Shown in pieces: positions 837 through 35,523 of a DNA stretch of 64,000 nt. Each line of letters begins with the position of its first letter. Within the stretch, counting starts at the first letter, position 1. The translations under genes and the position numbers were made by a program. The notes under the pieces were generated by a model that saw only the letters and a list, made by a program, of their open reading frames with translations, was not told the origin of the DNA and made no database searches. Source of the DNA: an uncultured bacterium (GTDB lineage: Bacteria > Joyebacterota > Joyebacteria > Joyebacterales > Joyebacteraceae); NCBI GenBank assembly GCA_964521425.1, contig CAZFRO010000005.1, forward strand, positions 3,141 through 67,140, read 5' to 3'.

Positions 837-3800
837 CTATCTCAGCACGACCATCTTTCTCGCCTCACTGCCCTGTGGGGCAACCACCCTGACGAAATAG
901 ACACCGGCAGCAACTGTGCCACCACGGCTGTCCTTGCCATCCCAAGTCACTTCGTAAGTTCCTGGGGGAAGTTCCTCTGTGCCCAGATCTCTGACGACAC
1001 GCCCGGCGAGATTGTACACCTTGACACTGGTCAGTCCACCTGGGCTTGGAACGGTGAACTGAAGAGTCGAGTGAGAAGTGGTTGGATTCGGATACGCTTC
1101 GACACTTACGCTGGCTGGGTGGTGCGCTCCATCGCCAAGTGGCGACGCTTGGTCAACGTGCTCGTAGCGACCTGTACTCTCAAGAAGATAGTATCTCTCT
1201 GTGCGGGGTGCTTGGGCCGGTGGCAAGAAGGTCAAATCCATCCGCTCGCCAGAGGACAGACTCGTGTAGTCGCCATCTACAGAGCCAATGACAGTATTGA
1301 CTCGGCCGTTGATCGAGTGCTCGGCTGCGATGAGCACGCACTCCTCGAGATCCTCGGCGACCGGCACATGCGTCGAGAAGAAGAGCTGGTCAACATAGAA
1401 GTCCACCGGCGTCCAGAGCCGAACCACTATGGATCCATCCCCTTCTATCGCATCTTCTGGGACATCAAGGAACCGCGTGCACGCGTTCTCGCGATAGCAG
1501 AAGCGTGTCATATCAATCAGCCCCTGCTCCGCAGGTAAGTTGAAACCTCCGGCGGGTGGGTCAATCTTCTGCCCCGGGCCGCCGTCGGTACCTATCCCTC
1601 CCCCGGCACGCCCCGGCGCATCGAACTCGGCTACGATCCAACCACCTGCAGGAATCAGAACCGTCTTGCCATCGTCATGAAGGATCAGATCAAGGACATC
1701 TCGTCCATCTTCATCGGTGCAGGTTCCCGGAGAAACCCGTGAGCCATAAGTTACAGGAGAGCCGTCCACAGTCATTCCCAGCGAATAGCCAGACGGAACG
1801 TCTGTCGTGTAGAGGCGCAGTCCATCGAAGTACGAGACATCATTCCTATCCTCACTGATTCGGAGTCGGCATTCACCGTCCTCAATAGACGGAGGCGTGC
1901 TCAGCACACATAGGTCGGTCTTGTCCTCCCCGAGCGTTGCACCTGCAAGCACGTTGTTGTCGCTCACGTACTTGCCTCCGGATGCAACCGAGACGAATGG
2001 ACATCCGCCGCCGGACTCCTTCTGGAGAACGGCGAATGAGTAGCGGAACGAGAGATCCTGTCTGGCTCCTAGATCATGATCGTAGACAACTCGCGGCATG
2101 CAGTTGAAGAGAACGTTCTCGTTTCCTCCACAGACGACGCGGAATGTGTCGAATACTGTCGGAACCAAGGACAACACCATCGTCACGGACTCGTTTCCAC
2201 CCTCACAGAAGTCGAAGATGTTCGCGACGACGCTGTCCCCAGCTGCGAATTGCCCGGTGACCACGTGCGTAAGCGATTCACCTATCTCATAGACGTTCGT
2301 GTCCGCCTCGCTGTACTCCAGGAGACTGACCCAGAGCTCTGTGCTGTCGCTCATCGCCTGTTCGTCCCAGTTCACCTTCACCTGCAAGTAGCGATCACTC
2401 TTTGATGTATCATAGTACTCGGTGTCTGCGACGAAGCTGATGTAGTAGGATCCCCAGAGTCGGACCTTCACGGGGTCGCAGTACTCGTTGTCGCAGTAGG
2501 TCGTGTCCCTAGGGTCATTCCAGCCGTCTGTGCAACCGGCTGCCGGATCGCTGCCGCTTCCGGGTACGCTTACCCACGTGCTGTCATTGTCGCCGTCAGC
2601 GAGAAACATCGGGGGGATGGCGATCTCGTAGCAGTTGTGTGCCCCCTGCCCCGTGTCATTCTTCAAGAAGAGACCGAGCGATGCCGATGGAGAGATGCTG
2701 TCGCTAAACGCGTACGCAGCATCATGTGAATCATCTGCGACCCATTTTGCTATCGAGTAGTCATGGAAGATCTTCTGGAGGCGGTACCCTCCCGGATAGG
2801 CTTCGCCCACGCCCCCCAAGCCCGCATACGCTGTGCTGTCCAGCACCGAGGCAAGCCCACACATATCGCGCATGTACTTGCCGTCAGAGTCCCGTCGTGA
2901 CCGAAGCCACCTATACAGGAGGTCGTCTTCGTAGGATGCCTCGGCGAACCGCTCCACCAAATACGTCGACCACGCTGCCCAGTTCACGTATCCGGTCCGG
3001 CAGTCCTCTTCGTCGGTCCAGTTGTACGTAACACAGGGCTCAACCGAGAGCACGTTCGAGAGCAAGCCACAGCTCATCCACTCTGCCGACAGTATGCCCA
3101 CGAGGGATTGCGCGTAGGGCTTATCGTACGCGACAGCACCGCTGCCGCGCGGCTTGGCCATCATTGCTGCACCACTTGCGAAGAATTCATTGAAGTTGGC
3201 GTGCTCCTGCACGATGCCGTGCTCGCTCGCGTCAGAGTTCCAGAATGCGTGCTGTGTCTCATGTGCGGCACCGACGGCTGCGTCGACTGGCCAGTCCAGA
3301 GTGTCACCACTCGCATTCAGTGCCCCTACAAGGACATGGAACGAGTTCTGATGATACTCACCGTACCCGGGCAGCGGCGGTTCGTCCTCGCTGATGCTCG
3401 TGAAGTCAGACACACACGATCCGTACGTCGCATCGACTCCACTAAGCGCCAGGTAGAAGTCGACATGGTCCCTCTCACCGCCGCCTACTCCCGAGTCGGC
3501 ACACGACGGAAAGAGAGCGAAGTTGTGCACTGCAGCGGAATCATAGGAAGTAGTAGCGCAGAAGTAGTTGACCAGAAGCTGAAGATCCGTCTCCTGAACA
3601 TCGCGGAGGTTGTCCTTGGCGATGTCAAATGTCCCAACAATGCGCCGTATCTCCCCGAGGTCGACGGCATTGATCCCGGTCAGCGAAGAACTCACGAGAA
3701 GGTCAATGTCATCATCTGGGCGCTCCGAACCGAAGTCCAACACCGCAGGGGCGAACGTCGGCGAAACCGTGTGCGTCGAATCCCAGAGACACCAGCGAGT

Positions 3801-3965
3801 GGAGCCACGGTCAATACCGGGATTCGGGTCAGTCGTGTCGGGTTGCCCGCCAACGCCAACCATGACGATTCCCTGGATGGCTGCGGACGATTCCTCACAA
3901 GCAGTGAAAACGACCATGCCGAAAACCAGCACGGTCGCAAGCACAACAAGGCCTCTGACCAGCAT
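837..3965 (-). CDS. Secreted T9SS cargo protein, 1042 aa; putative zinc metallopeptidase
   Basis: N-terminal signal peptide (MLVRGLVVLATVLVFGMVVFTAC). HETQH (HExxH) motif at about aa 245-249. C-terminal type-A T9SS sorting domain (AYPNPTTSHSTLQFTVP...VKVYNLAGRVVRDL...GVYFVRV...RKMVVLR). Confidence 0.6.
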   Translation of the reverse strand: MLVRGLVVLATVLVFGMVVFTACEESSAAIQGIVMVGVGGQPDTTDPNPGIDRGSTRWCLWDSTHTVSPTFAPAVLDFGSERPDDDIDLLVSSSLTGINAVDLGEIRRIVGTFDIAKDNLRDVQETDLQLLVNYFCATTSYDSAAVHNFALFPSCADSGVGGGERDHVDFYLALSGVDATYGSCVSDFTSISEDEPPLPGYGEYHQNSFHVLVGALNASGDTLDWPVDAAVGAAHETQHAFWNSDASEHGIVQEHANFNEFFASGAAMMAKPRGSGAVAYDKPYAQSLVGILSAEWMSCGLLSNVLSVEPCVTYNWTDEEDCRTGYVNWAAWSTYLVERFAEASYEDDLLYRWLRSRRDSDGKYMRDMCGLASVLDSTAYAGLGGVGEAYPGGYRLQKIFHDYSIAKWVADDSHDAAYAFSDSISPSASLGLFLKNDTGQGAHNCYEIAIPPMFLADGDNDSTWVSVPGSGSDPAAGCTDGWNDPRDTTYCDNEYCDPVKVRLWGSYYISFVADTEYYDTSKSDRYLQVKVNWDEQAMSDSTELWVSLLEYSEADTNVYEIGESLTHVVTGQFAAGDSVVANIFDFCEGGNESVTMVLSLVPTVFDTFRVVCGGNENVLFNCMPRVVYDHDLGARQDLSFRYSFAVLQKESGGGCPFVSVASGGKYVSDNNVLAGATLGEDKTDLCVLSTPPSIEDGECRLRISEDRNDVSYFDGLRLYTTDVPSGYSLGMTVDGSPVTYGSRVSPGTCTDEDGRDVLDLILHDDGKTVLIPAGGWIVAEFDAPGRAGGGIGTDGGPGQKIDPPAGGFNLPAEQGLIDMTRFCYRENACTRFLDVPEDAIEGDGSIVVRLWTPVDFYVDQLFFSTHVPVAEDLEECVLIAAEHSINGRVNTVIGSVDGDYTSLSSGERMDLTFLPPAQAPRTERYYLLESTGRYEHVDQASPLGDGAHHPASVSVEAYPNPTTSHSTLQFTVPSPGGLTSVKVYNLAGRVVRDLGTEELPPGTYEVTWDGKDSRGGTVAAGVYFVRVVAPQGSEARKMVVLR

Positions 3966-4024
3966 GAGACACCTTCAGCCTGGATGGGTGGTGACTTCAC
4001 AGCGGGCGAACACGTCCTCCGGGG

Positions 4025-6150: not shown

Positions 6151-8343
6151 TCACTTGAGAAGCAGCATCTTCTTGCTCGACTCGATGTCCTCGGCGTTCA
6201 TGCGGTAGAAGTAGACACCTGTGGCCATCTGCTTGCCGTCAGTGTCCTTACCGTCCCACACGACGCTCTGCTCACCCTCAGGCTCGAGTCCATCCACGAG
6301 AGTCGTTACGAGCCGTCCCGCGACGTCGTAGATCTCGATCGTCACGTGACCGCCGCCCGCAGGAACCTCGTAGTGGATCGTGGTCTTCGGGTTGAACGGG
6401 TTTGGAACGTTCTGGCGAAGATCGTAGCTCGTCGGGATCTCATCCGGCACACCGGTGCCGTAATCCATCTTGAGAGCGAACGCCAGATCGATCGAGTGAC
6501 CTGCCAGGGCGTGGTTCGGAGGATAGATGAGCTCCTGCCACGGACCCGGGTACGGCTCCATGCCCCAGCCCCAGACCGCGTCGTCGTTCCAGTTGTCGAG
6601 TGTCGTCTTCCAACCGAAGAGGGCATCCACATCCATGGGCTGTGCCTGGACGTCGAGCCAGTAGATGATGTTGGAATCCGGCATGCCGACCTGATGGAAC
6701 GCCTCTTCACGAGGAACAACGAACGAATAGAGCCAGCAGATCGTGTCAGCCGGGAACCAGTACTCCTCAGGCGGGTTCATCCAGCCTTCCAGTATCTGGT
6801 CCTGCCAGATGCTGGCCGTGAACTCGCCAGGAATGAAGTCGCGTACCCACAGGACCTCACCAGGCATGCTGTAGCCGCCCACGGGGGCCGGGATGTCCTC
6901 GTGGATGCTGAGCGTGAACTTCACGCCGTAGGGATCTTCGCCGAACGGGATGTAGTCGTCGAGCCACGAGCCCCACACGTCGATATTCGTGAGTCGCCCC
7001 GGCTCCGTGCAGAGGAAGTCGTCGGCGAGAATATAGGGCTCGGTGCAGTTGATGTCGATTCCGGTCTCCCCGAGATCCGGCGTCTGGATCCACTTCCAGT
7101 CGTCAGGAGCTTCAAGGCTGACCTCGTAGTCCTCGACCTCACCGTCCACTGCCATACCTCCGTACGACAGCCCACCGGAGGAGCTCAGACGGAATCTGGC
7201 GAATGTCGTAGCTGCGGTGGCGCCCACGGGAACGTTGAAGTTCAACGTCGGGGCGGTGCCTGCAGCCACCCACACCGATGTGAGAATCTGGTCACCGAGC
7301 TCAGCCCAGCCTCCGTCACTGTTGAAGTCGACCCAGGCGTCGATGAACCCACCCATCCCCGACGACATCATGTCGATCTTCACGCCGGCGGTATTGCCAG
7401 GGATCATCGCGCCCACGAAAGTAACGCCATCCTCATCGGCCGTTCCGGCGATATCGTCGCCGGTAGCATTGAAGTTTGGCTGGCCGTTGAGTTCAGAGTC
7501 TATGAGCATACCCATCTGGAAACCTGGAACGATCGGATGGGCTGGTCCACCGCTCGCGGCGAAGGTTGGGTACGTCGGATCCGGAGCGTCACCACAGTCG
7601 AGCAGCGGCGGCTCCGCTTCACCGGCAATCACGAAAGCGAGATCGATCGACTCAGGGTACCACGGATGCCCTTCGGGGTAGCGAAGCTCCCACCAGTCCG
7701 TGATGTTGGGTTCCTCTCCCTGACCCCATACAGCATCGTCATTCCAGTGGTCGACAGATGTCTTCCAGCCGAAGTAGGCATCGATATCATCGGGCCTTGC
7801 CTGTACGTCGAGCCAGTAGACGATCGGGTTCGCGGCTGAGCCCTGCTGGACGAAAGCCAGGTCCCCGATGATCGTGAAGTTGTACTGCCAGCAGACCGTG
7901 TCGCCGAGTGGAACATACATGTCGGGTGGGTTCAGCCAACCCTCCTGAAGACCCTCTTCCCAGATCCGCGGCTGAAACTCGCCCGGATTGAAGTCCATCA
8001 TCCAAAGAAGCTCGCCCGGCATGCTGTAGCCGGTCGGGCTCTCATCGGCCGGGATGTCCGCGTGGATGCTCAGCGTGAAGCTGACGGCCGTCGGATCGCC
8101 GTACGGGAGGTAGTCCTGGTACCACGAGCCCCATACGTGGATGCCTTCTATGGGACCAGTCTCCGTGCAGAGGAAATCGTCGGCCAGAACGAATGGAAAC
8201 GTCGCATTGACGTCCATTCCGGTCGGCTGCAGATCCGGGAGCTGGAGCCACTTGTATGGATCGCCATCGTCCCAGTCCGCGCTCGCAAGTACTGAGAGCG
8301 CAAGAACAAGAACGGCGGCGAACACAAACGTTCTCCTTGCCAT
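6151..8343 (-). CDS. Secreted T9SS cargo protein with two tandem ~210-aa repeats flanking a GEVED-like domain
   Basis: Signal peptide (MARRTFVFAAVLVLALSVLASA). Repeat 1 is aa 23-235 and repeat 2 is aa 414-622 (DWDDGDPYKWLQLPDL...IDLAFVIAG versus DDWKWIQTPDL...IDLAFALK), with clear residue-level conservation. The middle region ends in ...GGMAVDGEVEDYEV (GEVED motif). C-terminal sorting domain (VPNPFNPKTTIHYEV...IEIYDVAGRLV...GVYFYRM...KKMLLLK). Confidence 0.6.
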   Translation of the reverse strand: MARRTFVFAAVLVLALSVLASADWDDGDPYKWLQLPDLQPTGMDVNATFPFVLADDFLCTETGPIEGIHVWGSWYQDYLPYGDPTAVSFTLSIHADIPADESPTGYSMPGELLWMMDFNPGEFQPRIWEEGLQEGWLNPPDMYVPLGDTVCWQYNFTIIGDLAFVQQGSAANPIVYWLDVQARPDDIDAYFGWKTSVDHWNDDAVWGQGEEPNITDWWELRYPEGHPWYPESIDLAFVIAGEAEPPLLDCGDAPDPTYPTFAASGGPAHPIVPGFQMGMLIDSELNGQPNFNATGDDIAGTADEDGVTFVGAMIPGNTAGVKIDMMSSGMGGFIDAWVDFNSDGGWAELGDQILTSVWVAAGTAPTLNFNVPVGATAATTFARFRLSSSGGLSYGGMAVDGEVEDYEVSLEAPDDWKWIQTPDLGETGIDINCTEPYILADDFLCTEPGRLTNIDVWGSWLDDYIPFGEDPYGVKFTLSIHEDIPAPVGGYSMPGEVLWVRDFIPGEFTASIWQDQILEGWMNPPEEYWFPADTICWLYSFVVPREEAFHQVGMPDSNIIYWLDVQAQPMDVDALFGWKTTLDNWNDDAVWGWGMEPYPGPWQELIYPPNHALAGHSIDLAFALKMDYGTGVPDEIPTSYDLRQNVPNPFNPKTTIHYEVPAGGGHVTIEIYDVAGRLVTTLVDGLEPEGEQSVVWDGKDTDGKQMATGVYFYRMNAEDIESSKKMLLLK

Positions 8344-8557
8344 GCCTTCTCCTCCTCACTGTTGAGCCGCCGTCGATTCCGCATGTCAGTCCCGGCTACG
8401 GCTCCCATACCGAACCGGCTGCGGACATCTGCGGCTGCGATTATCAATCACCTGCACAACCGCGCTTATTGACGTCGGCATTATACCTCAGGAAGGTCTA
8501 AACTGCAAGAATCACCATAAGGCCCGAAACAGGGCCTCTCTTGAGGGGGGCCGGACC

Positions 8558-9395: not shown

Positions 9396-11693
9396 CTATC
9401 TGCTGAGCAGGAGCATCTTCTTCGTCTCGCTTACGGCAGCGGCCTCAAGACGATAGAAGTAGACGCCGGCCGCGAGTTCGGCGCCCGAAGGACCGCATCC
9501 GTCCCACGTGGCCACGTTCAACCCTGCGACGCACGCATCGTCCAGTATCGTACGGACCTTCCGGCCACTGACATTGAAGATGTCAATGCGCGCGTGGCCC
9601 TCCTCAGGCATAGAGAATGTAATCGTGCTCGAGACCCTGAACGGATTCGGGTAGTTCTGGTTGAGTGCGAACACGTATGTCGTGTCACCCGAGGACGTGC
9701 CCTCTCCCACCGTCACGCTCTCAATGTGCGGAGTGCAGTTGAATTCCGTCAGAGTCAGCGTTACGACACCGCTGTCGGGCAGACTCCCGACGATCTCTAT
9801 CACTGCCTCTCCGAATGCATCGGCGATCGCGCATCCCAGAAAAGACCCACTGTCACTCAGAGCCGCCCTGACTGAGGGCTCCGTGAACACGGTGAAGGAG
9901 GTCGACCCCTCTTCGATGTGCCCATCGTGGCTCGCCGCCAGTGCCGTGGGAGTGTTGCTTCGAACCGTAAGCGCCGGATCGCCGAAGATGTGCCAGTGGT
10001 TGAACTCGTCCGCGCCGTCGTGCCCGTACTCGTCCATCATCTTGCTCGAGCCGTTGAAGCAGAGCCCCCCGAGAGTCTGCATCTCTTCAGATACGAGCAG
10101 GTGCGCTATCTCGAGCTGTGCGCTGATCGGCGGCACCCAGCTCATGCTGATCGTTGATGCGTAGACCCCGACCCCACCGGTAGGTTCGTCCCCGTTCGTC
10201 GCCCGTTGCCAGACCTCAGCGAAACAGGTCTTGTCCGTGTACTGACCGGTCACGCAGGCCGTGCTTATGACCCACGGCAGCATGTTGTCATTCACGAGCC
10301 CGTTGACATCACCATTGATGTAGGTCCCAGTGCTCCACCCCATCGTGTTGCCGTGGCCTAAGTAGTTGACGAGACTCCTCCCCTCGTTCAGCGCGGCGCT
10401 GATCTCAGCAGAGGTCACTCCGGGATCGTAGAACTGATCGACATAGGTGTAGGTGTATCCGAGAAGCGTCTCGCGGATGGCCTCGATGAACTCGTAGTCT
10501 GGTGATCCACTGCCGCCATCCTGATCCGAGGCGATCCCTGTTGCCTTGTGATACCAGTCGGCGCCCGGCTCGGGATCGCGCTCATACTCTATCGTCCTCT
10601 CCACCTGTGTCGCGACCTGATCGAGCGTCTCTGCGGAGAAGCGACCGACGAAGATCTCCGGGTAGTTGTCGCTTCCAGCCAGAAGGGAATACACCGGGTC
10701 GGCTGACTGGGTTCCATCAACGGGATACGGCATCTGCTCATCGTCGCCGACGAGAAGCACGTACGCGATGCCGTCGGTGTCGTAGGCGTTCTGGATGTAG
10801 CTCTTGATGTCGTCGGCCGTTGAGCCGACCGTCGAGAGGCCCACGAGCGTCGTCGGCACGCCGATCTGGTTCCGCCAATCGGCCAGTGGGCGCGTGGTCT
10901 CGATGAAGGCATCGTTCGCGATGATCAGCATCGGCCCGCTCTCGGCCAGCGGCGTGTACCTGCCGGCAATCGAGCGGTAGTTCAGATAGCGGCTCCCATA
11001 GAGCCGTTCGAACTCCGCCACGCGTGCGCCGGGACGCTTCTTCAGAACATTCACACTACCCGTACCCTCGACAGATACCTCAACCGTGATCGAGGTGTAG
11101 ACTCGGAGGGTGTGCGTCCGGGCGTTGTACTGGAACGGGTTCAGCTCAAGGACGACGCCGCGCGTGTCCCGCATGATGAACGGATCACCAAGTCCGGCGA
11201 TCTCCGCAGGAAACCACGCATCCTGCTCGTAGACGGTCCCGAACGTGTACGGGACCGAGTCCGGATCGACGTTCCTCTTGATCGCTCCTTTGGAGGGAAC
11301 GACATCTATGCGGTCGAAGTCGCGGAAGGTGGCATCGATGACCCGGATGCCCATCTGCGCGTCGTCGGGAATGACGATCGACTGTCTCACGATCGGGAGT
11401 TCCGGAAGTCCCTGCTCGAGCAGTCGGGCGGCGCCGTTCAAGGCCACCGAGAAGAGAAGCCTCCCGTCGATGTCGACAGGCTCAGTCGTGAAGCTCCCGA
11501 CATCGAGTCGCAGGGTTGTGCTCTCGAGGTTCGATGCGAGAAGCGTGAGTTCGGTGGGCGCGGCGCCTGGGGCAAGCTCGATACGCTCGGCAGCCGTGCT
11601 CGTGGCTGCGAGGGTGACGGGTATGAGCAGGATGGCAATGAGTGGTCTCAAAGATTCCTCCTTGCGGCCATTATAGCACGAAGCCGGTGTCAT
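9396..11693 (-). CDS. Gingipain-like cysteine peptidase (family C25) with T9SS C-terminal domain
   Basis: Signal peptide after an internal start (MTPASCYNGRKEESLRPLIAILLIPVTLAA...). Catalytic-region motifs GHGNTMGW and STACVTGQY resemble the C25 His/Cys dyad. C-terminal sorting domain (NQNYPNPFRVSSTITFSM...IDIFNVSGRKV...GVYFYRL...KKMLLLSR). The start is trimmed so it does not overlap the upstream gene. Confidence 0.55.
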   Translation of the reverse strand: MTPASCYNGRKEESLRPLIAILLIPVTLAATSTAAERIELAPGAAPTELTLLASNLESTTLRLDVGSFTTEPVDIDGRLLFSVALNGAARLLEQGLPELPIVRQSIVIPDDAQMGIRVIDATFRDFDRIDVVPSKGAIKRNVDPDSVPYTFGTVYEQDAWFPAEIAGLGDPFIMRDTRGVVLELNPFQYNARTHTLRVYTSITVEVSVEGTGSVNVLKKRPGARVAEFERLYGSRYLNYRSIAGRYTPLAESGPMLIIANDAFIETTRPLADWRNQIGVPTTLVGLSTVGSTADDIKSYIQNAYDTDGIAYVLLVGDDEQMPYPVDGTQSADPVYSLLAGSDNYPEIFVGRFSAETLDQVATQVERTIEYERDPEPGADWYHKATGIASDQDGGSGSPDYEFIEAIRETLLGYTYTYVDQFYDPGVTSAEISAALNEGRSLVNYLGHGNTMGWSTGTYINGDVNGLVNDNMLPWVISTACVTGQYTDKTCFAEVWQRATNGDEPTGGVGVYASTISMSWVPPISAQLEIAHLLVSEEMQTLGGLCFNGSSKMMDEYGHDGADEFNHWHIFGDPALTVRSNTPTALAASHDGHIEEGSTSFTVFTEPSVRAALSDSGSFLGCAIADAFGEAVIEIVGSLPDSGVVTLTLTEFNCTPHIESVTVGEGTSSGDTTYVFALNQNYPNPFRVSSTITFSMPEEGHARIDIFNVSGRKVRTILDDACVAGLNVATWDGCGPSGAELAAGVYFYRLEAAAVSETKKMLLLSR

Positions 11694-11716
11694 CCGAAGA
11701 CCGCAGAAAGGAGCCG

Positions 11717-13030
11717 CTACTTCATCCGCAGCGACGTGAGGAACTCGACATGGTCCGAGTAGGGTCCGTTCATCCAGAGAAGACCCGGTCCATCGGGCCC
11801 ATGGTTCTCGGGCACGACAGGCTGGACGTTGTTCCAGCGCGAGTTCGAGGTGATCGCATCGACGTTCCACGTCTCGCCACGATCGGGCGTTACCCAGCGC
11901 TCTATCTCAAAGATGCCGTCGATCTCACGCGACAGATAGACGATCGATGGATCGCTGTGATCGAGGGCGATGCCCCCTGACAGATGTACATCCATGTTGC
12001 GACTGCCCGGGCGACCGGAGGCGAACCAGCCGCCTGCGTGCGTTAGTTCGCGGTTCTCCCACGCCACCCCATTCCACCGGGCGTACCAGTAGACATGATC
12101 CTCATCCGAAGGGAATGTCGCATAGACGATGACCGGATTCCCATCTGCGCCGTCCGCCACGTCCCATACACGCGCGGGCACACCGGTGGTTGATGCGTCG
12201 TAGACACGATCACAGGCACTCGGAGCGAACGGCAGCGCATCCATGTCTGCGATATCGGTTCCATCGGCCCGAACGACGCTTCCGGACTCGTACCGCGCGT
12301 AGTAAATGCCTCCACCTCCAGGATCGTCGGCAAGTCCGGACGTCATCGCGAAGTGGATCCTGCTCACGCCGTCCGATGTCACCTTGACGTGGGGATGCGC
12401 TCCCTCCTCGTGGATGAAGCGAGCAGGCTCCGTCCATTTCACCCTGTCATCCGAGACTCTGAAATACGTCGCGAACCCGACTCCCCTCCAGAAGACGTAG
12501 AGTCTGTCGCCCTCATCCGAAAGCTGCACGGGTGCTGCATAGCTGTAGCCGAGGCTACCGCCTGCATGTGGCCCGACATCCGACTCGGCCCCCCAGACAC
12601 TGATATCCTCGCGCCTCGAGGCGGTCCTGTACAGAAGCCACCTTCCGCGGAAGCCGGACATGAAGATGGCGAGCCTGTCGTCGGAGCGCATCAGAAGCGC
12701 GGGGACAGCGCGATCGTCTGCCTGATACTCTGCGCGCAGCGTCTTCTTCACCCTCTCCCCGGTGTCGTGATCGAAGGACAGAACCCTCAGGTCACCGATC
12801 GAGTTGACCCACGTGACGTAGGTCCGCCTGTGTTCGCCCTCGTGATAGAGGGCCGTCGGGCCGCCGAACCCGGACCATGCGCCATCGGGAGTCACCGTGA
12901 AGCCCGCCTCGCCGGGAAGCCCCAGATCGCGATCCAGCCCCACACCCTCATGTTTAGATTGCGACGCGCAGCCTGCCAGGAGCGCCACGGCGCACACGGC
13001 CATCACGGCCACTAACCCCCGTCTCATCAT
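11717..13030 (-). CDS. BNR/Asp-box repeat lipoprotein (sialidase-like propeller fold), function unknown
   Basis: Lipoprotein signal MMRRGLVAVMAVCAVALLAGC. Asp-box-like motifs (RVSDDRVKWTEP, TPDRGETWNV). Its start ATG overlaps the stop of the upstream ASST-like gene (ATGA), which suggests translational coupling. Confidence 0.55.
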   Translation of the reverse strand: MMRRGLVAVMAVCAVALLAGCASQSKHEGVGLDRDLGLPGEAGFTVTPDGAWSGFGGPTALYHEGEHRRTYVTWVNSIGDLRVLSFDHDTGERVKKTLRAEYQADDRAVPALLMRSDDRLAIFMSGFRGRWLLYRTASRREDISVWGAESDVGPHAGGSLGYSYAAPVQLSDEGDRLYVFWRGVGFATYFRVSDDRVKWTEPARFIHEEGAHPHVKVTSDGVSRIHFAMTSGLADDPGGGGIYYARYESGSVVRADGTDIADMDALPFAPSACDRVYDASTTGVPARVWDVADGADGNPVIVYATFPSDEDHVYWYARWNGVAWENRELTHAGGWFASGRPGSRNMDVHLSGGIALDHSDPSIVYLSREIDGIFEIERWVTPDRGETWNVDAITSNSRWNNVQPVVPENHGPDGPGLLWMNGPYSDHVEFLTSLRMK

Positions 13031-17050: not shown

Positions 17051-17123
17051 ACGACAGAAAGGCACCCGCGCCAACGGCGCGGGTGCCCAAACACAGAACC
17101 AGCTCGACACCGACCGTTCCATA
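17051..17123 (-). repeat. Conserved 3' element, copy 2 (box plus terminator hairpin 17061-17087)
   Basis: On the gene-sense strand it reads TGATATGGAACGGTCGGTGTCGAGC...TTTGGGCACCCGCGCCGTTGGCGCGGGTGCCTTTCTGT, about 90% identical to copy 1. Confidence 0.6.
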
Positions 17124-19369
17124 TCACTTGACCAGCACCATCTTCCTCATGTCGCTGAAGCCCGGTGTATCTATGCGATAGAAGTAGACTCCCGAGGGAA
17201 CTTGCTGGCCCTGCTCGTTCGTACCATCCCAAGTGGCCTGGTGTTCGCCCCCTGGCCTGTTGTCATTGATGAGCGTCTTGACCTGTCTGCCCGCCAGATC
17301 AAAGACCACAATCGAAACATGCGCGCCTCCGATCGGCACCTCGTATGAGATGTGCGTGACCGGATTGAAGGGATTGGGTGTGTTTGGCGAAGCTGAGAAT
17401 CGGTCGGTGGCCAGGTCGCTCCAATCGCCTGACCCCAGTTTGGCGAGGAGTTCTGGCGGGATAGGCAGAGTCCGCGAGCTTCCGCACTCGTGGCCGAAGT
17501 GAGTGGAGAGGGTCACGAAATCAATGGGATCGACGACTCCATCGCAGTTGAAATCCGCGACCCAGCTTCCCGGCGCACTGCTGCCAAACCAAGGTGCGAA
17601 ATGCCCGAAATCGAGGGGATCGACAATGCAGTCAGCATTCATGTCGGGCGAGCGGACCTGTGTCTGCAGTACGTCCGGCAGCATCCTCGGACCGTCCGTG
17701 TACGCGGCAATTGTCAAGAGAGTATCGCTACCGCCTCCCCACCAAACGTCCACCCAAGCTCGTCCCCCGGCATCCGTCGCCGCTCCGGGCAGCATCACTT
17801 GCGGTGATTGGACTGTCTCCTCGGTGTCCTCGCAGCACAGCCTAGATGTTCCATCTACACTCGGAATCAACCACACGAACAGATCATCATTCTCTTCCAC
17901 GGGGAAACCACAGCTGTCTCTGAGAGTGATCTCGAGCTTTATGGGGGGCCGCCCCCCTACCGGCGCCTCCAGATCTCCGGCTGGACAGAGCTGGGGGCAG
18001 TCTGGCTGGTTCGGTGCAAAGGCGAATTCACATTGCGGTAGATAGGGACGCCAGCAGGCATTGCACGCGGGTCCCGCACGTCTTTGGCTACTACCTGCTC
18101 GCCCCATGACCAGGTATGAGTACTTGCGGCCGTGCGGGGCCGTCATATCGATGTACTCGTACTCGCCGGGTCCTGATGCCGGCAGCAGATCGGGGCTGAT
18201 CTGCGCATAGGCCTCAATGTACCGTGTCCCGTCATCCAGCCACTCCCAGTCGGGTGCCCGGTAGACGTCGAAGCCATCCAGTGCTCCGCCCTCGTAGGTC
18301 GTCGTCCACTCCACTCGAACCCCCTCAACGACCTCTTCGCAGGAAACCGTCGAGTACTCCGCCAACTGTATTCCCGTGGCAACCGCTGGACCACAGGTTC
18401 GTGCGAAGCCATTGTCGCACCAGATGACATAGCTATACGAGAGACCCCGGACGACCTCGTTATCAGCATACGTGAAATGCTCTTCGTACGGTGATCCGCT
18501 GCCCTCGTATACGAGGACATATGGCTGGCCCTCCTCCTTCCCATACACGCGGAAGCTGTGAGAATAGGGCCCGGGGTTCACCCACCAATCCAGTTGGATC
18601 TGACCGGCGCCAGGGGTAGCAGTGAACATGTAGAGATCGTCCACTGAGGTCCACAGGTATATTGTATTGGCTCCGTTCTCTTCATCGGAACACGGTGATC
18701 GCCTTACGAAGTTGCTGTACCAAGGATTCGACATCACACAAATCGGATCACAGACAATCGGATCTGTGTGCCTGAGCGACAGCCAATGGCCAAACTCGTG
18801 CAACGCCTTTGATTCTATGTCCATGGGCCAGTTCACAGGGGGGGGGCCGGTAGGTAGTCCCAGTCGAACATCGGCTGGTTGAAGAACGTATCGCACTCCA
18901 GAATAACGTAGCCTTCCTTGCTTATGCAGGCCACTGCGCAATCGTCTATTTGGCTGCTAGGCCAAATCATGGAGAAGCCGACGCTGTTCGTGTCATCGAA
19001 CACATGCGAGAGCCCGTAGTAGTCGGTCTCACGATATGGCGCGATGTACTCGATTGGCGCGAAGATCGTCGAGTCTATGGTCTCGTCCCAGGTCGACATG
19101 GCACTCTGTATGCCCGACAGACCGCCATCCTCCACATTTGGTCCGGCAACCAGATCGAGCAGATTGGGAGTGACGTGGTAGTCGAAGCTGTCGAACCAGC
19201 GGAGATAGTTGTTCCCACTTGTGCTGCAGTTCGGATTGAAGCAGTCGAACGGATCGTCATCACACGATGATTGTCCAATGCAGACTCCAGGCATGCTGGC
19301 GATTCCCAGAAGAGCCGTCATGAGGAATAGCGCCCCAGCTGCCCACCGACTACTACGGGCCCGCTCCAT
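17124..19369 (-). pseudogene. Metzincin-like Zn-metallopeptidase T9SS cargo gene, split into two overlapping ORFs by a frameshift in a 9-G homopolymer
   Basis: Upstream ORF 18833-19369 carries the signal peptide (MERARSSRWAAGALFLMTALLGIASMPGVC). Downstream ORF 17124-18941 carries HEFGHWLSLRH (HExxHxxSxxH), two dockerin-like Ca-binding repeats and a T9SS sorting domain (TPNPFNPVTHISYEV...VVFDLAGRQV...GVYFYRI...KMVLVK). The two overlap at the G9 tract 18838-18846. A 10th G would join them in frame (...DYLPAPPPVNWPMDIESKALHEFGH...). Confidence 0.55.
18838..18846. repeat. Poly-G (9 nt) homopolymer inside the metzincin-like cargo gene
   Basis: gttcacaGGGGGGGGGccgg. This is the site of the frame change between ORF 18833-19369 and ORF 17124-18941. 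Confidence 0.9.
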
Positions 19370-19384
19370 GTTTCCTCCTTGACC

Positions 19385-20323
19385 TCACCTTGACGTGTCC
19401 CCGAGTTCGCCCAACACATCTGCTGTAGCGGCACTCTCAAGATCGTGCTTCCCCGCGCGCCCTCGTACAAGTTCGTACGTTCCTCCCAAACCGGCACGAA
19501 GGAACAACAGCACATCTTCACCCTTCCTGAACTCAGCTAGGACTCGCCCGGGTGCCGCCCTCGGGGAATGCTGGACGACCGTTATCTCGTGGTCATGGCT
19601 CTCCCCTTTGAGCACCTCCTTGACTGCCAGCGTCGCCATTCGCGCCGGAACCGGTTCATCAGCGCCCCAGGGGGTGTTCAGTGCATTCCATTCCCACCAT
19701 GCAGAGGTCACCTCCCCAATCACAACAAGATCTGCTTCCTCAAGATCATCCAACACTGACACTTGTGGAAGAAGTTCACCCAGTTCCTCGAGGAACTGGT
19801 CGATGTGTATCCCCTTTCGCTCCACAGTCCCTTCTCCAGCGACGATGTACTTCGAATAGGGACTGATGCCAGCTAGCTGTCGACCGTGTGGCGATTGCTC
19901 CCAGAACAGAACAACAGCACATCGATCCCCCTCAGCGTATGCTGCCGCGGGGGTTATCTCGACGGCATAGCTCCCAATCTGCCCTCCGGCCGCTACGAAC
20001 TCGAGTTCATCACTGCACGGTCCTCTCAAGCACTGCTCAACGGAGAGAGTCACGAGCGTGTACAGGCTCGGCCGCTTGGGATTCCCAAATGATCTAACTG
20101 CCAACTCCGTGACCGTTCCGAGAGCTACGCAGTCGGCGCTGGAGATGTACCGTTCCTCCTTGGAGACCCAGGTCGACACGTACTCTCGAGCAAGGTTATC
20201 GCCGGGATCACGTGCATTCATGTTCTCCGCTGCGCGCAGCACGGCCAGATCGGGTGTCAGCGCGTGGCCAACTGCACACACTGCACCCATGAGCAACACC
20301 AATATTGCCATCGTGCACCGCAT
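19385..20323 (-). CDS. Secreted protein of unknown function with internal duplication (paralog A)
   Basis: Signal peptide (MRCTMAILVLLMGAVCAVGHA). Two similar halves sharing motifs ALGTVTEL.../YTLVTLSV and ADLVVIGEVT.../GEDVLLFL. Homologous along its length to the protein at 37460-38389. Lies 16 bp upstream of the metzincin-like cargo gene on the same strand. Confidence 0.5.
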   Translation of the reverse strand: MRCTMAILVLLMGAVCAVGHALTPDLAVLRAAENMNARDPGDNLAREYVSTWVSKEERYISSADCVALGTVTELAVRSFGNPKRPSLYTLVTLSVEQCLRGPCSDELEFVAAGGQIGSYAVEITPAAAYAEGDRCAVVLFWEQSPHGRQLAGISPYSKYIVAGEGTVERKGIHIDQFLEELGELLPQVSVLDDLEEADLVVIGEVTSAWWEWNALNTPWGADEPVPARMATLAVKEVLKGESHDHEITVVQHSPRAAPGRVLAEFRKGEDVLLFLRAGLGGTYELVRGRAGKHDLESAATADVLGELGDTSR

Positions 20324-20661
20324 GATCGTCCCCCCTCCTGAGAGAAGCCGGAATCACTGAGCAGCTTGAGCGATGCCACCTATCGCGATCAGTCTGTCCA
20401 GCGCATCACTCCTGTCAAGCCAAAACCGACACTGCGCGGCAATGCAGAGGTACATGGTCACCCACCCAGCCGGCTGAGGAAGCTGGCCTGCGGTGCAATC
20501 CGTGGGTGTATCCTCACGCTCCCCTACCCATGAGAGATCCTCAGCCTCTGCAGTTCGGGAGACACCATGCCTGCGTCTGGACATACGCGCTTTGAGGAGG
20601 GCCCCAGAAGGGCTATCATGAACACATCAGCTATTCGCAGGCGACTTGCGGGGGGGTTCCG

Positions 20662-21969
20662 GTGACCACAAGGAAGATAGTGAAGCTCGCGCTCGTACTC
20701 CTCATCGTGGGAATAGGCGTCTACGTGCATTTCAGCATGAGACAAGAGGAGGAGATACCTCCGAACGTCCTTCTGATCTGTATGGACACGCTCCGCCGTG
20801 ATCACGTGGGCTTCATGGGATCCGACCGTCACGTCTCCCCCAACCTCGATGCACTCGCGGCGGAGGGTGCAGTGTTCACCAACGCCTACAGCCAGTCCGG
20901 CTGGACAATGCCGTCGATGGGCACGATCTTCACGGGGCTCTATCCGCACGCGCATGGCGCCACTGACTTCCACCACGCGATGAACCGGAGGCTGCCGACG
21001 CTCGCGAGCGTGCTCCAGGATAACGGCTACGATACCAGGGCCTTCGTGAGCCACCTCCTCCTCACTGCGGAATACGGATTCAACAAGGGGTTCGCGAAGT
21101 ACGACTACAGCGTGCTCCGGATGGGACATCCTCACGACGCCTCCACGGCGACCAGGCTGACGGAACTCGCCATCACCGATCTGGACAAGCTCAAGGAGCC
21201 GTTCTTCATGTGGGTGCACTACTTCGACCCGCATTTCGAGTACCTCCCCCACAAGGCGTGGGACTCGTTCGGAGACGGGGATGTCGACCGGTACGACCAG
21301 GAGATAGCCCACACCGACAGTGAGATCGGCAACCTGCTGGCGGCACTCGGGGCGCGCGAGATGATGGAGAACACGATTCTGGTCTTCACGTCGGACCACG
21401 GTGAGGAATTCCGGGAGCACGGCGGTGACTTCCACTACACGAGCTACCAGGAAGTGATGCAGGTGCCGCTCTTCATCACCGGCCCCGGCGTCGAGCGTGG
21501 CGAGCGCACTGTCATGGCGGAGCAGATTGACTTCCTGCCGACCATTCTCACCCTTCTCGGAATCCCTGAGATACCGACAGGGCTGCCCGGGAAGGACATC
21601 CTGGATCCTGCGGCACAGAACAGGCCTGTCTTCATGGAGCGCGACCGTCCACCGGGACACCACCAGCGTGCGATCATCGACGGGGACATGAAGCTGATCG
21701 CGGTTGCACCATCAGACACGAACCTCATCCCATGGGCGAGCCGGGGCACGTTCGCTGATGTGCTCAATGTCCACGACGGCACGTTCATGTTTGATATCGG
21801 AAGCGACCCAGGCGAGACCAGAAACATCTACGCGCCGGGAACAGAGCCCACGGACGAGCTTCTGGCGATGCTCGCTGCATTCATGGAGGACCGGGGAATC
21901 GAGAGCGATGCGGTCGAGATGGATGAGGCCACGCGCGAGAAACTGAGGGCGCTCGGGTACGTGCAGTAG
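20662..21969 (+). CDS. Membrane-anchored sulfatase-like hydrolase/transferase (alkaline-phosphatase superfamily, PF00884-like)
   Basis: N-terminal TM helix (IVKLALVLLIVGIGVYVHF). Motifs LLICMDTLRRDHVGFMG, NAYSQSGWTMPSMGTIFTGLYPHAHGA, VLVFTSDHGEEFREHG. GTG start with a G-rich SD. Confidence 0.7.
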   Translation: MTTRKIVKLALVLLIVGIGVYVHFSMRQEEEIPPNVLLICMDTLRRDHVGFMGSDRHVSPNLDALAAEGAVFTNAYSQSGWTMPSMGTIFTGLYPHAHGATDFHHAMNRRLPTLASVLQDNGYDTRAFVSHLLLTAEYGFNKGFAKYDYSVLRMGHPHDASTATRLTELAITDLDKLKEPFFMWVHYFDPHFEYLPHKAWDSFGDGDVDRYDQEIAHTDSEIGNLLAALGAREMMENTILVFTSDHGEEFREHGGDFHYTSYQEVMQVPLFITGPGVERGERTVMAEQIDFLPTILTLLGIPEIPTGLPGKDILDPAAQNRPVFMERDRPPGHHQRAIIDGDMKLIAVAPSDTNLIPWASRGTFADVLNVHDGTFMFDIGSDPGETRNIYAPGTEPTDELLAMLAAFMEDRGIESDAVEMDEATREKLRALGYVQ

Positions 21970-30986: not shown

Positions 30987-31871
30987 TTGAATTTGAAGCC
31001 AATCTCCAGCTGCGCGGCCACTCTTATTGCTGGTGCACTGATGCTCTCGGTGATGCCAGGCTGTGGCAATGCCGAGAGCGGAAATGCACCGTACGACATC
31101 GACACTCTCCAGCCTGGAGAGCGAGCACTGGTTACGCTCCCTCTCGAGTTCGATATCGTGTCGTCGAACAGGCTGTACGTTGATGGCGTGCTAGTCAAAC
31201 ACGCTCTTCTCACGACGGAGGACGGTGGCTCGCTCTTCCTCAACGGAACACCGATTCTCCCTCACAGGCCGTGCCCAGAGGGACCGCCGTTGCCCGAGGA
31301 GACATACGAGCGGGTCTACGGGGCCGTTCCATATGTTCAGGAACTCGTGGAATCAGGTGCCTCGGCGAGAGAGGCCGGGCAGGCGTATCTGGCTGCAAAG
31401 AGGAGAGTAGTTGGCAGACTGCATGAGCTGTACCTTGCTGCTCGCGAGTCTGGAAAGGACCGAGACGCTGCGGGGACCGTGGCTTTCGATGCTCTTAGGG
31501 ACCTAGACGAGGCGAGTCTGATTGACTGGGACGGCGAGGTCACGCAGAGCTACAACATGTTTATCGTCACCTGGAGAGGAATGAGAGGAGAGGAAGAGAT
31601 CCTGTTCGTGGACTCCGGGCCGGAGAGGCTCCAGGCACCGAGCGAGGAGGCGAAGCAGCGTCTCGCCACGCGGCTCTACGAACTGCTCGGCCGGGGTGGC
31701 GCACCGTGCTGGTACGTCATCACGTGCAGCAGCACGTCTATCGACATAGGGACGGAAGCCGTCGCCAAGACGCAAGCTCATCTCGATGAGGCAAGGCAGA
31801 CCGGGGTGATCGAGGGCGGTGCTCTGTCGAAGCTCGCAGTCGAGCAGATACTTGCCAATGAGGGGAGGTGA
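30987..31871 (+). CDS. Hypothetical lipoprotein
   Basis: Lipoprotein signal MNLKPISSCAATLIAGALMLSVMPGC. The stop overlaps the start of the downstream giant cargo gene. Confidence 0.5.
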   Translation: MNLKPISSCAATLIAGALMLSVMPGCGNAESGNAPYDIDTLQPGERALVTLPLEFDIVSSNRLYVDGVLVKHALLTTEDGGSLFLNGTPILPHRPCPEGPPLPEETYERVYGAVPYVQELVESGASAREAGQAYLAAKRRVVGRLHELYLAARESGKDRDAAGTVAFDALRDLDEASLIDWDGEVTQSYNMFIVTWRGMRGEEEILFVDSGPERLQAPSEEAKQRLATRLYELLGRGGAPCWYVITCSSTSIDIGTEAVAKTQAHLDEARQTGVIEGGALSKLAVEQILANEGR

Positions 31872-34800
31872 GCGAGATGCCGAGTAGATTGACATGCTTA
31901 GCGATGTGCTTGGGCCTGCTCATCGCGTCCAGCTCACCCGCGCTTGCCGAATCCGCCGGGATCTTCGACATGTGCGACTGGGAAAACGACCATCTGAACT
32001 ACGATGACGCGGTGCTTGAGCGGTGCATTGCGGCGAAGGACACGTGGGATATCCTCGCTGGGATGGTCAGGGTGCGTCAGGAGAGCAGTCTTGACAACGA
32101 CCCGGCGGCCAGCTTGCTGACGTGGCAAGACCTTGTCGCCGGCAGCACCGCCGTGGACATCACTTCACACGGGGGCAGTGGCGGCTCCCTGGCGGCGGAG
32201 TTCTATGCAGACGAGACCGTCAGAGACGCCGTCTTCGATCAGTACACGCACGAGGAGACCGGTGGGTATGGGGTGTCCCAGATCAGGGTTGGGACCGTCG
32301 TCAGTCCTCCCGACACAGCCTACACTATCACATGGAAGGCTCAGGGCATTTCTGACTTCCTCTCCTCCGCCGCCCTCGGCATCTCATCGCGGGCGATCCT
32401 CTTCGGGGACTACTGCGCCAGCTGCACGAGCGCATACCAGTGGGGATTGGATTTTAGTGGGTCATGGTGGCCCATCGGTGGTGCGATGTTCTGCTACACG
32501 GAGTCTCAGCCCTCCGATCCGCTGACAGACTATCGCGAGAACCTCTACGGTGCGATGAGCTCTCTGGGCTGCTATGTCCTCGGGCGGGATTCGAGTGTGG
32601 GCGACGCAGAGGATGAGATCACCGAAGAAGGTTCAGACGTAGATATCACGGTTCTGGGTGACCGTGAGAGCAGCTACCACTTGGATGAGGACTGCCACAA
32701 CCCCGCCGCCGCCTTCGACGGTGCCTTTGCGTTCGATGGGAAGATCGTGTTCCGAACTGCCTACGAGGCGGGGTCGATCTGTCACTTCGTGATGGGAGTG
32801 GACTCGTGGCGAGACGTGAACGTGAAGGACTGGACTTCATGGGATGTGCTCGCACGTGTAAGACCGGAGGGAGGGCGAGGAGTCGCCCAGCTCTACGAGG
32901 TTGACGACGTGCCTGACAAGGCCGCCTACCGGATCGTGGAGGTGGACCGCTACGGTCGTCCAACGTTCTCACCGGTCTTCGTACATGGCGCGAAACCGGC
33001 GGCGTACGACGAGTGGCTGGCGCATCCGGCTGTCGTGGCTGTGGTAGACAACAAGCATGGGATGTCGTCGGGGCTCTACCACTGGGTATCGGGTCGGAGG
33101 GTGCGCTATGGCCACGAGTTCACCTCGCCTGGAGAGGATGGGCACACGGGGAGTTCGGATGGAGGTCCGAGCTTCGCAAGCCGAGCCGACTCGAGCGGGT
33201 GCGCGGACATCATCGTGTACACGAATGCAGACTACGATAGCTTGCTCTTGCCCGTGGAGGATCACCTCTCCCACTACTCAGGCAAGAAGGTCCTTTACTT
33301 CCTAGGAAGCTCCAGCTTGGCCGACGCACAAACGTGCTACGGCGACGTTCACTCAAGCAACGTGGCGTACAATCAGGCAACAGGTACCGATAGGTTCCCA
33401 ACGGATGCCCCAGGGCCACTTCTGCTGCTCGTGGGCGACTCCTATCCGAGTATCATAGTATCGCACGACAGCTTCCCTGACGAGCATGACAGGTGCCAGT
33501 ATCCGTGCTTCTCGGATCGCGACGCCACGGATGTTCTGGGATCCGGCCCGATTGGACTTGTGCATCGCATCCCTGCTGATACCGTGGCTGAGGTAGAACG
33601 AGCATGTGCTGGGGCCTACGACTGGAACCGTGGGGATCATGTAGATCCAAACTGGAGCACCATCGAGGTTGTCGGGAACCGATTGGGCGACTCAATCACT
33701 GAGTGGCCGATTGAGATGGCCGACGATGCCGCATCGAAATTCATGGGAATGGGTTGTCTGGCGAAGCCGCCTCTCGTGGAGGGAGACTACCCCTATTCGC
33801 AACAGGGCACATTGGACAAGTGGGCAGACTTCGATGCTCAACTTGACGACGGTGCCGCGATGCTATGGGGCTTCGGCCGCGTCACGGACGCGCTCTATGA
33901 CGCAAGCTACGGTGGATGGGCTGGTCACTTCGTGCACAAGCCGGACACAACTGCGAACCGGACCCAACAACGCATCGTGGCGATGATGCCAGGTTGCACG
34001 ACAGTCGGAGTCTGGAAGGACAACACCTATGTGACTTCGCTTGTCGAGCGGTGGATGTACTTCGATCCGCGGTTCACTCAGATCGTTGGCACGGTCGGGC
34101 ATCTCACTGGCGGGTGGGAGCACCAGCACCGGAAGGCCGAGGAACTGTACATGGACGCGTGGCGCGAGGCCCCCAAGGATGCACCTCTTGATTGGGTAGT
34201 CTGGCGGGCGACGCAGATGGCGGAGGAGCAGGGCCTCTACTGGATGGAGGACTACTTCAGATCGGCCGCCACAATCGGTGGCTACGTTCTGGCTCGACCA
34301 GGAGGGGGCTGGAGTACGTCGGCCATTGTGACGGAGGCCGACTCTCTTGTGTTCTGCCCTTCGGGATGCGGCCAGTCACATGCTGACTCCATTACTATCA
34401 TCGTGACAGTGAAGGACAAGACGACCGGGATCCCTGTGGTTGGAAAACCTCCGGAGGACATCCGCGTAAGTGCGTGGTCGGAGGAAGGCTTCTCGTTGGT
34501 CTGTGAGGATACATGCTACATTCTGCCCTGCCTGCATCCGCCATCCCCCACGGATGAGAATGGGCAGGCGTTCATCCCCCTGAACCGAGCCGGTGGTCAC
34601 GGTCCCGGCGCATTCTTGAGTGTCAACGTCAACTTCCCGGCCAGTGGGTATTCGATCGGTAGGACCATCGATCTGGAGGCCAAGTCGCCCGACATCAACG
34701 GCGACGGCTCTGTCGACCCGATTGATTTCGGCCGCTTCGGCACCGACTTCAGCGAAGGGGTGGGGTGGCGTTCGGATTTCGACTACGACGGAGATGTCGA

Positions 34801-35295: not shown

Positions 35296-35523
35296 AGAGC
35301 ATCCTCAGCGGCACATCGAAGTGAAACCGGCTGGTCAGCTACCACGCGTTGGGTGGCCCCTCAGAATCGCCATCTCGCGCACCCCATATCAACTTCCTCA
35401 ATTCCACTATCTGTGATATCATCATATTGGTTCGATCTCTTGAGGTGGCGGCAATTGCTCCGCCACTCGTGTCGGTAGACACTGGCTTGTGTGATGTCGT
35501 GCACAAGGGAGAGGAGCGGGTCA

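Follow-up and report, generated by a model that had tools for sequence, protein, structure and literature searches.

We analysed a 64,000-nucleotide stretch of DNA (the window) from contig CAZFRO010000005.1 of an uncultured bacterium of the phylum Joyebacterota, in which a run of nine C residues on the minus strand breaks a predicted gene for a secreted, matrixin-like zinc metalloprotease that carries the C-terminal sorting tag of the type IX secretion system (T9SS). The reading that we favor, with modest confidence, is that this is a genuine, fixed null allele of an accessory secreted protease gene, caused by the loss of one nucleotide; in other words, a young pseudogene formed on a mutable tract. 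Homopolymer-frameshifted genes are a well-known kind of feature. The parts of the gene lie in the window as follows.

18838..18846, minus strand: C9 homopolymer, the site of the frame break; the upstream frame reads GCC CCC CCC CTG TGA.
18833..19369, minus strand: 5′ fragment of 178 codons (178 amino acids), comprising an N-terminus that resembles a signal peptide and the first half of the putative matrixin-like catalytic domain.
17124..18836, minus strand: 3′ fragment of 570 codons counted from a GTG, with the putative zinc-binding helix, Met-turn, middle β-rich domains, two dockerin-like repeats and a T9SS-type C-terminal domain.
19374..19380, minus strand: AAGGAGG, which resembles a Shine-Dalgarno sequence and ends 4 nt before the ATG that starts the 5′ fragment.
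18768..18800, minus strand: HEFGHWLSLRH, a zinc-binding motif of the metzincin HExxHxxxxxH type with Ser in place of the usual Gly, beginning 12 codons (36 nt) past the GTG at 18834-18836.
17136..17378, minus strand: T9SS type A / FlgD Ig-like C-terminal sorting domain, residues 665-745 of the joined protein (TIGR04183, 27.9 bits against a cut-off of 23; PF13860, FlgD_ig, 35.6 bits against 27).

Read directly from the sequence, the tract is G9 on the plus strand (GGGGGGGGG at 18838-18846), and the coding strand across it is ...GAC TAC CTA CCG GCC CCC CCC CTG TGA. The nine C residues occupy codons 175-178 of the 5′ fragment, whose product ends ...DYLPAPPL*, with the TGA (18833-18835) coming two codons past the tract. 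The second open reading frame (ORF), 17124-18941 on the minus strand, crosses the tract in another frame (...LGLPTGPPPVNWPMDIESKALHEFGHWLSLRH). Only the part of it downstream of the tract is real coding sequence, and the TTG given as its start, at 18941, is an artefact of the way in which ORFs were listed. From the tract the downstream frame, which is −1 relative to the upstream one, reads ...PTGPPPVNWPMDIESKALHEFGHWLSLRH... and extends to 17124. When we edited the tract length computationally, adding one C gave a continuous protein of 748 amino acids and removing two gave one of 747; C10 or C7 thus restores the frame, and C8 or C11 leads into the third frame. The joined (C10) product reads ...LPAPPPVNWP..., with the junction peptide ...DYLPAPPPVNWPMDIESK. 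These results confirm an earlier note on this DNA, which had described the G9 as dividing a protease gene into two overlapping ORFs, the first ending in LPAPPL*, and had proposed that ten G residues would restore one protein of about 748 amino acids. The GTG or ATG start codons of the 3′ fragment have no Shine-Dalgarno-like sequence in front of them comparable to the one that precedes the 5′ fragment. The TGA of the 5′ fragment overlaps the GTG at 18834-18836, in the downstream frame, as GTGA. In a window of this composition (60% G+C) a 9-base G/C run is unremarkable by itself (two observed, 0.87 expected, and at least two in 22 of 100 shuffles); what is notable is its position.

Several lines of evidence indicate that the two ORFs are halves of one gene. 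Against a family profile built from 114 matrixin-like relatives, the 5′ ORF matches positions 32-130 (19.8 bits), the 3′ ORF matches positions 139-194 (43 bits), and the joined sequence matches as a single domain over positions 39-194 (70.6 bits). By BLASTP, the joined protein aligns over its full length with a homolog of 742 amino acids (P0002; 43% identity, 98% coverage), and the alignment is uninterrupted at the junction. A HMMER search of 1.84 billion representative proteins found three further complete single-ORF homologs (P0264, 749 amino acids; P0265, 725; P0266, 732) and showed that the full-length family is tiny, with only 12 proteins at E < 1e-30. The four full-length homologs are 38-50% identical in the family alignment and all are single ORFs that span the junction, and none of the four has a homopolymer tract at the junction site. 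It is because the profile matches are complementary halves, the joined match is a single domain and the homologs are single ORFs that we treat the two as one gene. In an AlphaFold2 model of the joined catalytic domain (predicted TM-score 0.79, mean pLDDT 74.8), the junction (model residues 147-149) lies in a loop between the last β-strand and the HEFGH helix. The best Foldseek matches to this model in the PDB are catalytic domains of matrix metalloproteinases (MMPs; 1rm8, E = 1.5e-6, target-normalised TM-score 0.70), and all of the top 50 are MMP-1, -3, -8, -9, -12, -13 or -16 with a probability of 1.0. The catalytic-domain entries have target-normalised TM-scores of about 0.7, and the three proMMP-9 entries have scores of about 0.46-0.49. 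The joined domain is thus predicted to have the MMP catalytic-domain fold.

The features of a metzincin are divided between the fragments. The motif HEFGHWLSLRH lies in the downstream ORF, as first reported, and its H, E, G and H are invariant in our family alignments A3 and A4, as is the Met-turn Met of CVMSNP (joined residue 213). The match of the joined protein to PF00413 (11.4 bits) is below the cut-off of 24, and a Pfam scan of P0002 gave no PF00413 match at all, but seven relatives found through P0002 pass the threshold (30.7-52.8 bits). From these similarities we classify the catalytic domain as a very divergent matrixin (PF00413 / MEROPS M10). The third zinc-ligand position alternates in the family, being His in the focal HEFGHWLSLRH and Asp in the HExGHWLxLxDL type seen in P0002, P0264 and many other relatives, the latter recalling the Asp ligation of snapalysin-type enzymes. 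Scans of genome and metagenome collections that used a protein alignment as the query returned only distant matrixin-like domains and no close ortholog, so they were useful for assigning the family and not for comparing tracts. At the C-terminus both TIGR04183 and FlgD_ig exceed their cut-offs, in agreement with the T9SS sorting domain noted earlier. The dockerin-like repeats noted at the same time are present as two repeats, though their Pfam match is sub-threshold (E = 0.08). The N-terminus of the 178-residue fragment (MERARSSRWAAGALFLMTALLGIASMPGVC) resembles a signal peptide by eye, but it is the 3′ fragment that has the sorting domain, so that the two share a polypeptide only in the hypothetical joined protein. 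Among the scanned proteins of the window we saw no T9SS machinery (PorV/PorU/SprA etc.). The joined protein resembles bacterial matrixin-like metzincins with T9SS type A domains in having HExxHxxxxxH plus a Met-turn, an MMP-like predicted fold, a putative signal peptide and TIGR04183/FlgD_ig matches. It differs from them in the divergence of its domain, in having Ser for the Gly of HExxHxxGxxH, and in the Asp third ligand of its close relatives.

The split recurs in every assembly that we could retrieve. NCBI, ENA, JGI/IMG and Logan all list its products: 10 contigs encode the exact protein of the 5′ ORF, 14 JGI contigs encode a version of 162 residues with a different start, and one more contig encodes a version that differs by 1 residue. 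Every catalogued upstream product ends in LPAPPL. We retrieved nine contigs (from IMG 3300009320 and 3300008954; ENA SAMN10231889, SAMN10231894 and SAMN10231911; and Logan SRR8062348 and SRR8062322), and all nine have exactly C9. The Logan SRR8062348 contig is identical in five runs. A variant strain of low abundance (L104; ENA SAMN10231911 scaffold_106173) is 99.7% identical, differing at 4 of 1,437 positions, and keeps the C9. Its differences (window positions 18803, 19307, 19324 and 20112) are three non-synonymous and one synonymous: V71G in the gene next to the protease, L16I and a synonymous change at L21 in the 5′ fragment, and L to V in the otherwise invariant ALHEFGH. This pattern is weak evidence for inactivation. 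A dN/dS-type test of constraint was unfeasible, as the copies are 100% identical except for this one 1.4-kb variant contig with its 4 single-nucleotide differences.

We propose that a frameshift of the 1-nt-deletion type in the chromosome has inactivated the gene for the secreted, T9SS-tagged, matrixin-like protease. Translation from its intact ribosome-binding site (RBS) would give the 178-residue, signal-peptide-bearing fragment containing only the β-sheet half of the catalytic domain, and would leave the zinc-binding helix, Met-turn, accessory domains and sorting domain in the −1 frame, with neither a signal peptide nor an RBS of their own. Because the active site and the sorting tag are separated from the signal peptide and the RBS, no functional exported protease would be expected, and we infer that the fragments are non-functional. 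At the level of consensus assemblies the null allele appears to be fixed in every sampled population. The pseudogene is probably young, because it has only a single lesion. It is also probably accessory, because genomes whose PurD (phosphoribosylamine-glycine ligase) is 87-92% identical to that of the window contribute no closer ortholog of the protease to the databases. The earlier note had envisaged a true pseudogene if reads uniformly gave G9 and orthologs showed the same split. Of the cases that it set out, a true pseudogene with uniform G9 is the closest fit to what we see in consensus assemblies.

The position of the break within the protein suggests why it arose there. The junction would lie in a Gly/Pro-rich hypervariable surface loop, which in the family alignment reads, for example, PAPPP, GGTTPGG, GRPDGR or GRGEY, and whose GGN and CCN codons would form G/C runs that are hot spots for insertions and deletions. 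A fifth homolog, L113 (2393-4685; IMG 3300005265 Ga0073580_100202, NCBI; also L114, L115), is itself called as three ORFs. The middle called fragment (P0270) is 44% identical to the focal protein, and in tblastn searches with the intact relatives the homology moves through frames 2, 1 and 3. Two breaks, both of the −1 (1-nt-deletion) type, are reproduced in JGI/NCBI, ENA and Logan assemblies. The first (about nt 2954-2980) is close to runs of G5, C4 and G4 and interrupts the loop that also contains the focal break, at a point between YFNGG and RWGVGD...MDLKTWALHETGHW; no run coincides with the second (about nt 3543-3549). L113 is flanked by genes for IS21 and IS110 transposases and is a plain decaying pseudogene. 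We estimate the chance of a shared break position to be roughly 2% per break (a 30-45-nt window in a 2.2-kb gene). Breaks in the same loop are explained most simply by the short G/C runs that its Gly and Pro codons make, which would attract indels.

In these respects the focal gene is like the homopolymer-frameshift null alleles, or ‘fs-genes’, catalogued by GeneTack (PMC3711429): it has a single 1-nt indel at a mononucleotide run, BLAST-validated homologs each have one uninterrupted ORF, the family does not conserve the frameshift site, and a second family member is multiply frameshifted and lies beside insertion sequence (IS) elements. It differs from them in that the allele has been documented as fixed in an uncultured lineage, over many metagenome samples, and in that its 9-base run is long enough that reversion should be frequent.

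Several observations weigh against a fixed null allele. There is only one lesion, and both fragments remain long open frames with a G+C content at third codon positions typical of the genome (0.65-0.69). The RBS and the neighboring partner gene are intact, and a functional gene that is held OFF or is recoded would look alike. The tract is not explained by codon usage alone, because CCC-CCC is avoided elsewhere in the window: none of the 36 other Pro-Pro pairs in its 13,912 codons is encoded in this way. Consensus assemblies cannot show a minority of G10 cells. The samples hold one nearly clonal population, so the contigs (counted as 23) amount to few independent lineages. Finally, C_CCC_CCC is listed as an efficient −1 frameshift heptamer in E. 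coli (PMC4066793). Both back-mutation to C10 and rare −1 slippage on this heptamer would be physically plausible, and neither is seen in use. It is conceivable, if doubtful, that a free-living, uncultured bacterium of the FCB (Fibrobacterota–Chlorobiota–Bacteroidota) group uses the tract as a working switch or recoding site, either as a phase-variable G9/G10 locus that keeps a costly or ‘public-good’ T9SS matrixin OFF in most cells or through constitutive low-level −1 frameshifting, on the bare heptamer, that doses the protease. If that were true, the break in the same loop of L113 would hint at a recurrent, loop-specific switch and not at chance.

The first form of this idea is slipped-strand phase variation, in which slippage between nine (OFF) and ten (ON) residues would reversibly control the secreted protease, with OFF dominant in the sampled populations. 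We consider it unlikely. The C9 is a simple sequence repeat within an ORF, and a change of ±1 in its length toggles the frame. Classically, such switches have just this anatomy, a 9-base G/C run placed within the first quarter of a gene whose product is secreted or at the cell surface (PMC3711429; PMC1891110; PMC10334774). Moreover, there is a single lesion that +1 repairs, the hypervariable loop would tolerate APPP, and the run consists of codons that the window does not otherwise use for Pro-Pro. What is lacking is variation. We generated the expected products of C6, C7, C8, C10, C11 and C12, each with both of the start codons chosen by gene callers, and found none of them among about 15 billion catalogued proteins. 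Homology searches gave no near-identical intact protein, and at the consensus level neither the nine contigs nor this protein collection shows any tract-length polymorphism with ON and OFF alleles. The diverged strain has the same C9, the homologs lack the tract, and L113 decays without one. Nor are long runs in excess in the 64-kb window (two nine-mers against 0.87 expected), the other nine-mer being a conserved in-frame motif of purD. The window has five other T9SS-tagged genes, all of them intact, in which runs never reach 8 bases. The suggestion of a slipped-strand switch, made in the earlier note, thus has found no positive support: public assemblies contain no length variant or ON allele, the homologs are tractless, and L113 is a pseudogene with multiple frameshifts. 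Reads that showed both G9 and G10 would make the locus an example of phase variation by homopolymer, acting on a secreted protease, in a non-pathogenic environmental lineage, where such switches have hardly been sought.

Known slipped-strand poly-G/C loci include those of Neisseria, Campylobacter and Bordetella pertussis (PMC1891110) and the 7C tract of Mycobacterium tuberculosis glpK (bioRxiv 10.1101/717272, PMC10334774). Like them, the C9 is a G/C run towards the 5′ end of a gene with an exported product, and a change of ±1 toggles the frame; it also shares a G+C-rich genome with the phase-variable loci of Bordetella and Mycobacterium. It is unlike them in that the available assemblies contain no tract-length polymorphism with ON and OFF alleles and the 64 kb examined shows no sign of a repertoire of tracts.

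That the true genome has G10 and an intact gene for 748 residues, with short-read consensus systematically under-calling the run, is quite unlikely. Indel errors occur most often at homopolymers, a single base would mend a gene that has no other lesion, and all the assemblies may stem from overlapping read sets of a single project. However, the C9 was obtained by four independent pipelines (JGI, ENA re-assembly, Logan and NCBI) from at least 8 samples or runs, and it is seen both in the per-run Logan contigs that are identical in five runs and in the low-abundance variant strain; no product derived from G10 is among the catalogued proteins. The contig also provides its own controls. The only other 9-base G/C run in the window, a G9 at 63601-63609 within purD (62320-63630, minus strand), is in frame and encodes the conserved GGGG of MKILVVGGGGREHA, and the PurD protein is exactly as long as a homolog that aligns to it with 100% coverage at 92% identity. 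Three C7 runs (at 38792, 47381 and 53586) are inside continuous Pfam domain matches, and a fourth (at 47036) is just beyond the ApbE match within the same intact ORF, which makes five further G/C runs of 7-9 bases that keep the frame of conserved genes in the window. An error confined to one assembly is very unlikely, because the C9 recurs in every retrieved assembly and the other long runs are in frame; a systematic under-call that hit only the focal run is improbable, since the equally long G9 and the four C7 runs of the same contig were not affected. The homopolymer sequencing or assembly error put forward in the earlier note therefore now seems unlikely.

Recoding, by which a full-length protease would be made through −1 ribosomal frameshifting on C_CCC_CCC or through the addition of one C by RNA polymerase, we regard as very unlikely. 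The heptamer has the register that slippage from the upstream 0 frame requires (G-C_CCC_CCC-CUG-UGA, with the 0-frame UGA 3 nt later), a −1 slip on it would give exactly the C10 product, and both fragments are intact. C_CCC_CCC is among the efficient −1 frameshift heptamers in E. coli (Sharma et al., PMC4066793), though in that species motif-only frameshifting reaches at most about tenfold above the background of 0.055% (PMC4066793). We found no frameshift-stimulating RNA structure in the 108 nt downstream (minimum free energy −33.1 kcal/mol compared with a shuffle mean of −31.2; z = −0.55) and, by inspection, no GGAGG or other Shine-Dalgarno-like element upstream of the tract. The site is conserved in none of the four single-ORF homologs, and the breaks of L113 lack a slippery heptamer. 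Bacterial transcriptional slippage is documented for A/T runs (PMC3711429; PMC6260861). The arrangement resembles programmed −1 frameshifting as in dnaX and the IS3/IS911 family (PMC4066793) in having an X_XXY_YYZ heptamer in 0-frame register, a nearby 0-frame stop and a −1 frame that encodes the rest, but it has no stem-loop, pseudoknot or upstream Shine-Dalgarno element, its site is not conserved, and its upstream product has no plausible function of its own. A small −1 leak is plausible; a programmed event is not supported.

We reject a functional split gene, with termination and reinitiation at the GTGA and both products in use, as scarcely credible: the TGA does overlap a GTG that one gene caller took as a start (P0021), but the break parts a single catalytic domain between its β-sheet and its zinc-binding helix, the downstream product is stranded without a signal peptide and so could not use its T9SS domain, and all four complete homologs are single ORFs.

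For now, the finding bears mainly on annotation. The two ORFs, which different pipelines call with 178, 162, 566, 570, 536 and 506 amino acids, should be joined in annotations and marked as a single frameshifted, matrixin-like T9SS cargo gene, with the frameshift left in place and not ‘corrected’ on the assumption of an assembly error. The in-frame purD G9 on the same contig serves as an internal control for the reality of homopolymer frameshifts in metagenome-assembled genomes. The same DNA has been annotated in four ways downstream of the break: Logan starts at the GTG to give 570 amino acids, and other pipelines start at a later ATG or GTG to give 566, 536 or 506.

The gene next to the protease is the partner gene mentioned above.

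19385..20323, minus strand: partner gene, 312 amino acids, predicted to be secreted, with no Pfam family; 15 nt from the protease start.

A homolog of it adjoins every member of the protease family that we examined, namely P0002, P0264 and the L113 pseudogene (25% identity, E = 2e-15). Its product has weak similarity (E = 1e-4 to 3e-6) to domains that, in other phyla, form the N-terminal part of fusions with a matrixin-like domain (L015, L016, L056, L044 and L002), and it may be a separated pro-domain, an inhibitor or a chaperone partner. At the other end of the locus, 36 nt past the stop at 17124, is a GC-rich inverted repeat (GGGCACCCGCGCC-GTTG-GCGCGGGTGCC, followed by TTTCTGT; 17061-17088, minus strand). 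By eye it looks like an intrinsic terminator for the two-gene unit, with a T run too short for the rule of a consensus scan. Our promoter and terminator scan around the locus gave nothing above the shuffle expectation, and neither Rfam over the whole window nor a tRNA search gave any matches.

The window is chromosomal, containing genes for ArgRS, FakA/DegV, ApbE, RnfC, NrdD, PurD and a PurM-like protein. The best named relatives of its PurD are from Candidatus Eisenbacteria (64-66% identity), and the closest others are 87-92% identical; as an approximate placement, the bacterium is probably related to Eisenbacteria. We found no papers in a literature search on Eisenbacteria and the T9SS. The five further genes with T9SS/FlgD_ig-type C-terminal domains, all intact, are at 837-3974, 6151-8355 and 9396-11906 on the minus strand and 31862-35215 and 35479-37353 on the plus strand. 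The sorting domain was identified by Pfam in 6151-8355, 9396-11906 and 35479-37353, and by eye or by similarity in 837-3974 and 31862-35215. These T9SS-tagged neighbors include a gingipain-like Peptidase_C25 protein with a propeptide and a DUF7901+GEVED protein, and together they form an unusually dense cluster of secreted-protein genes. The 1118-residue protein of 31862-35215 shares a C-terminal module of about 300 amino acids with the focal protease (17124-18000; 38% identity, E = 7e-52), consisting of an Ig-like region, two dockerin-like DxNxDGxVDxxD repeats, a conserved HFGHxCGS..PPEL linker and the sorting domain. This common module suggests shuffling of modules among cargo proteins. A further run, G7 at 20650-20656, is located 5 nt upstream of the GTG start of a sulfatase gene (20662-21969, plus strand), at the position of a ribosome-binding site, where a change in its length could alter the initiation of sulfatase translation.

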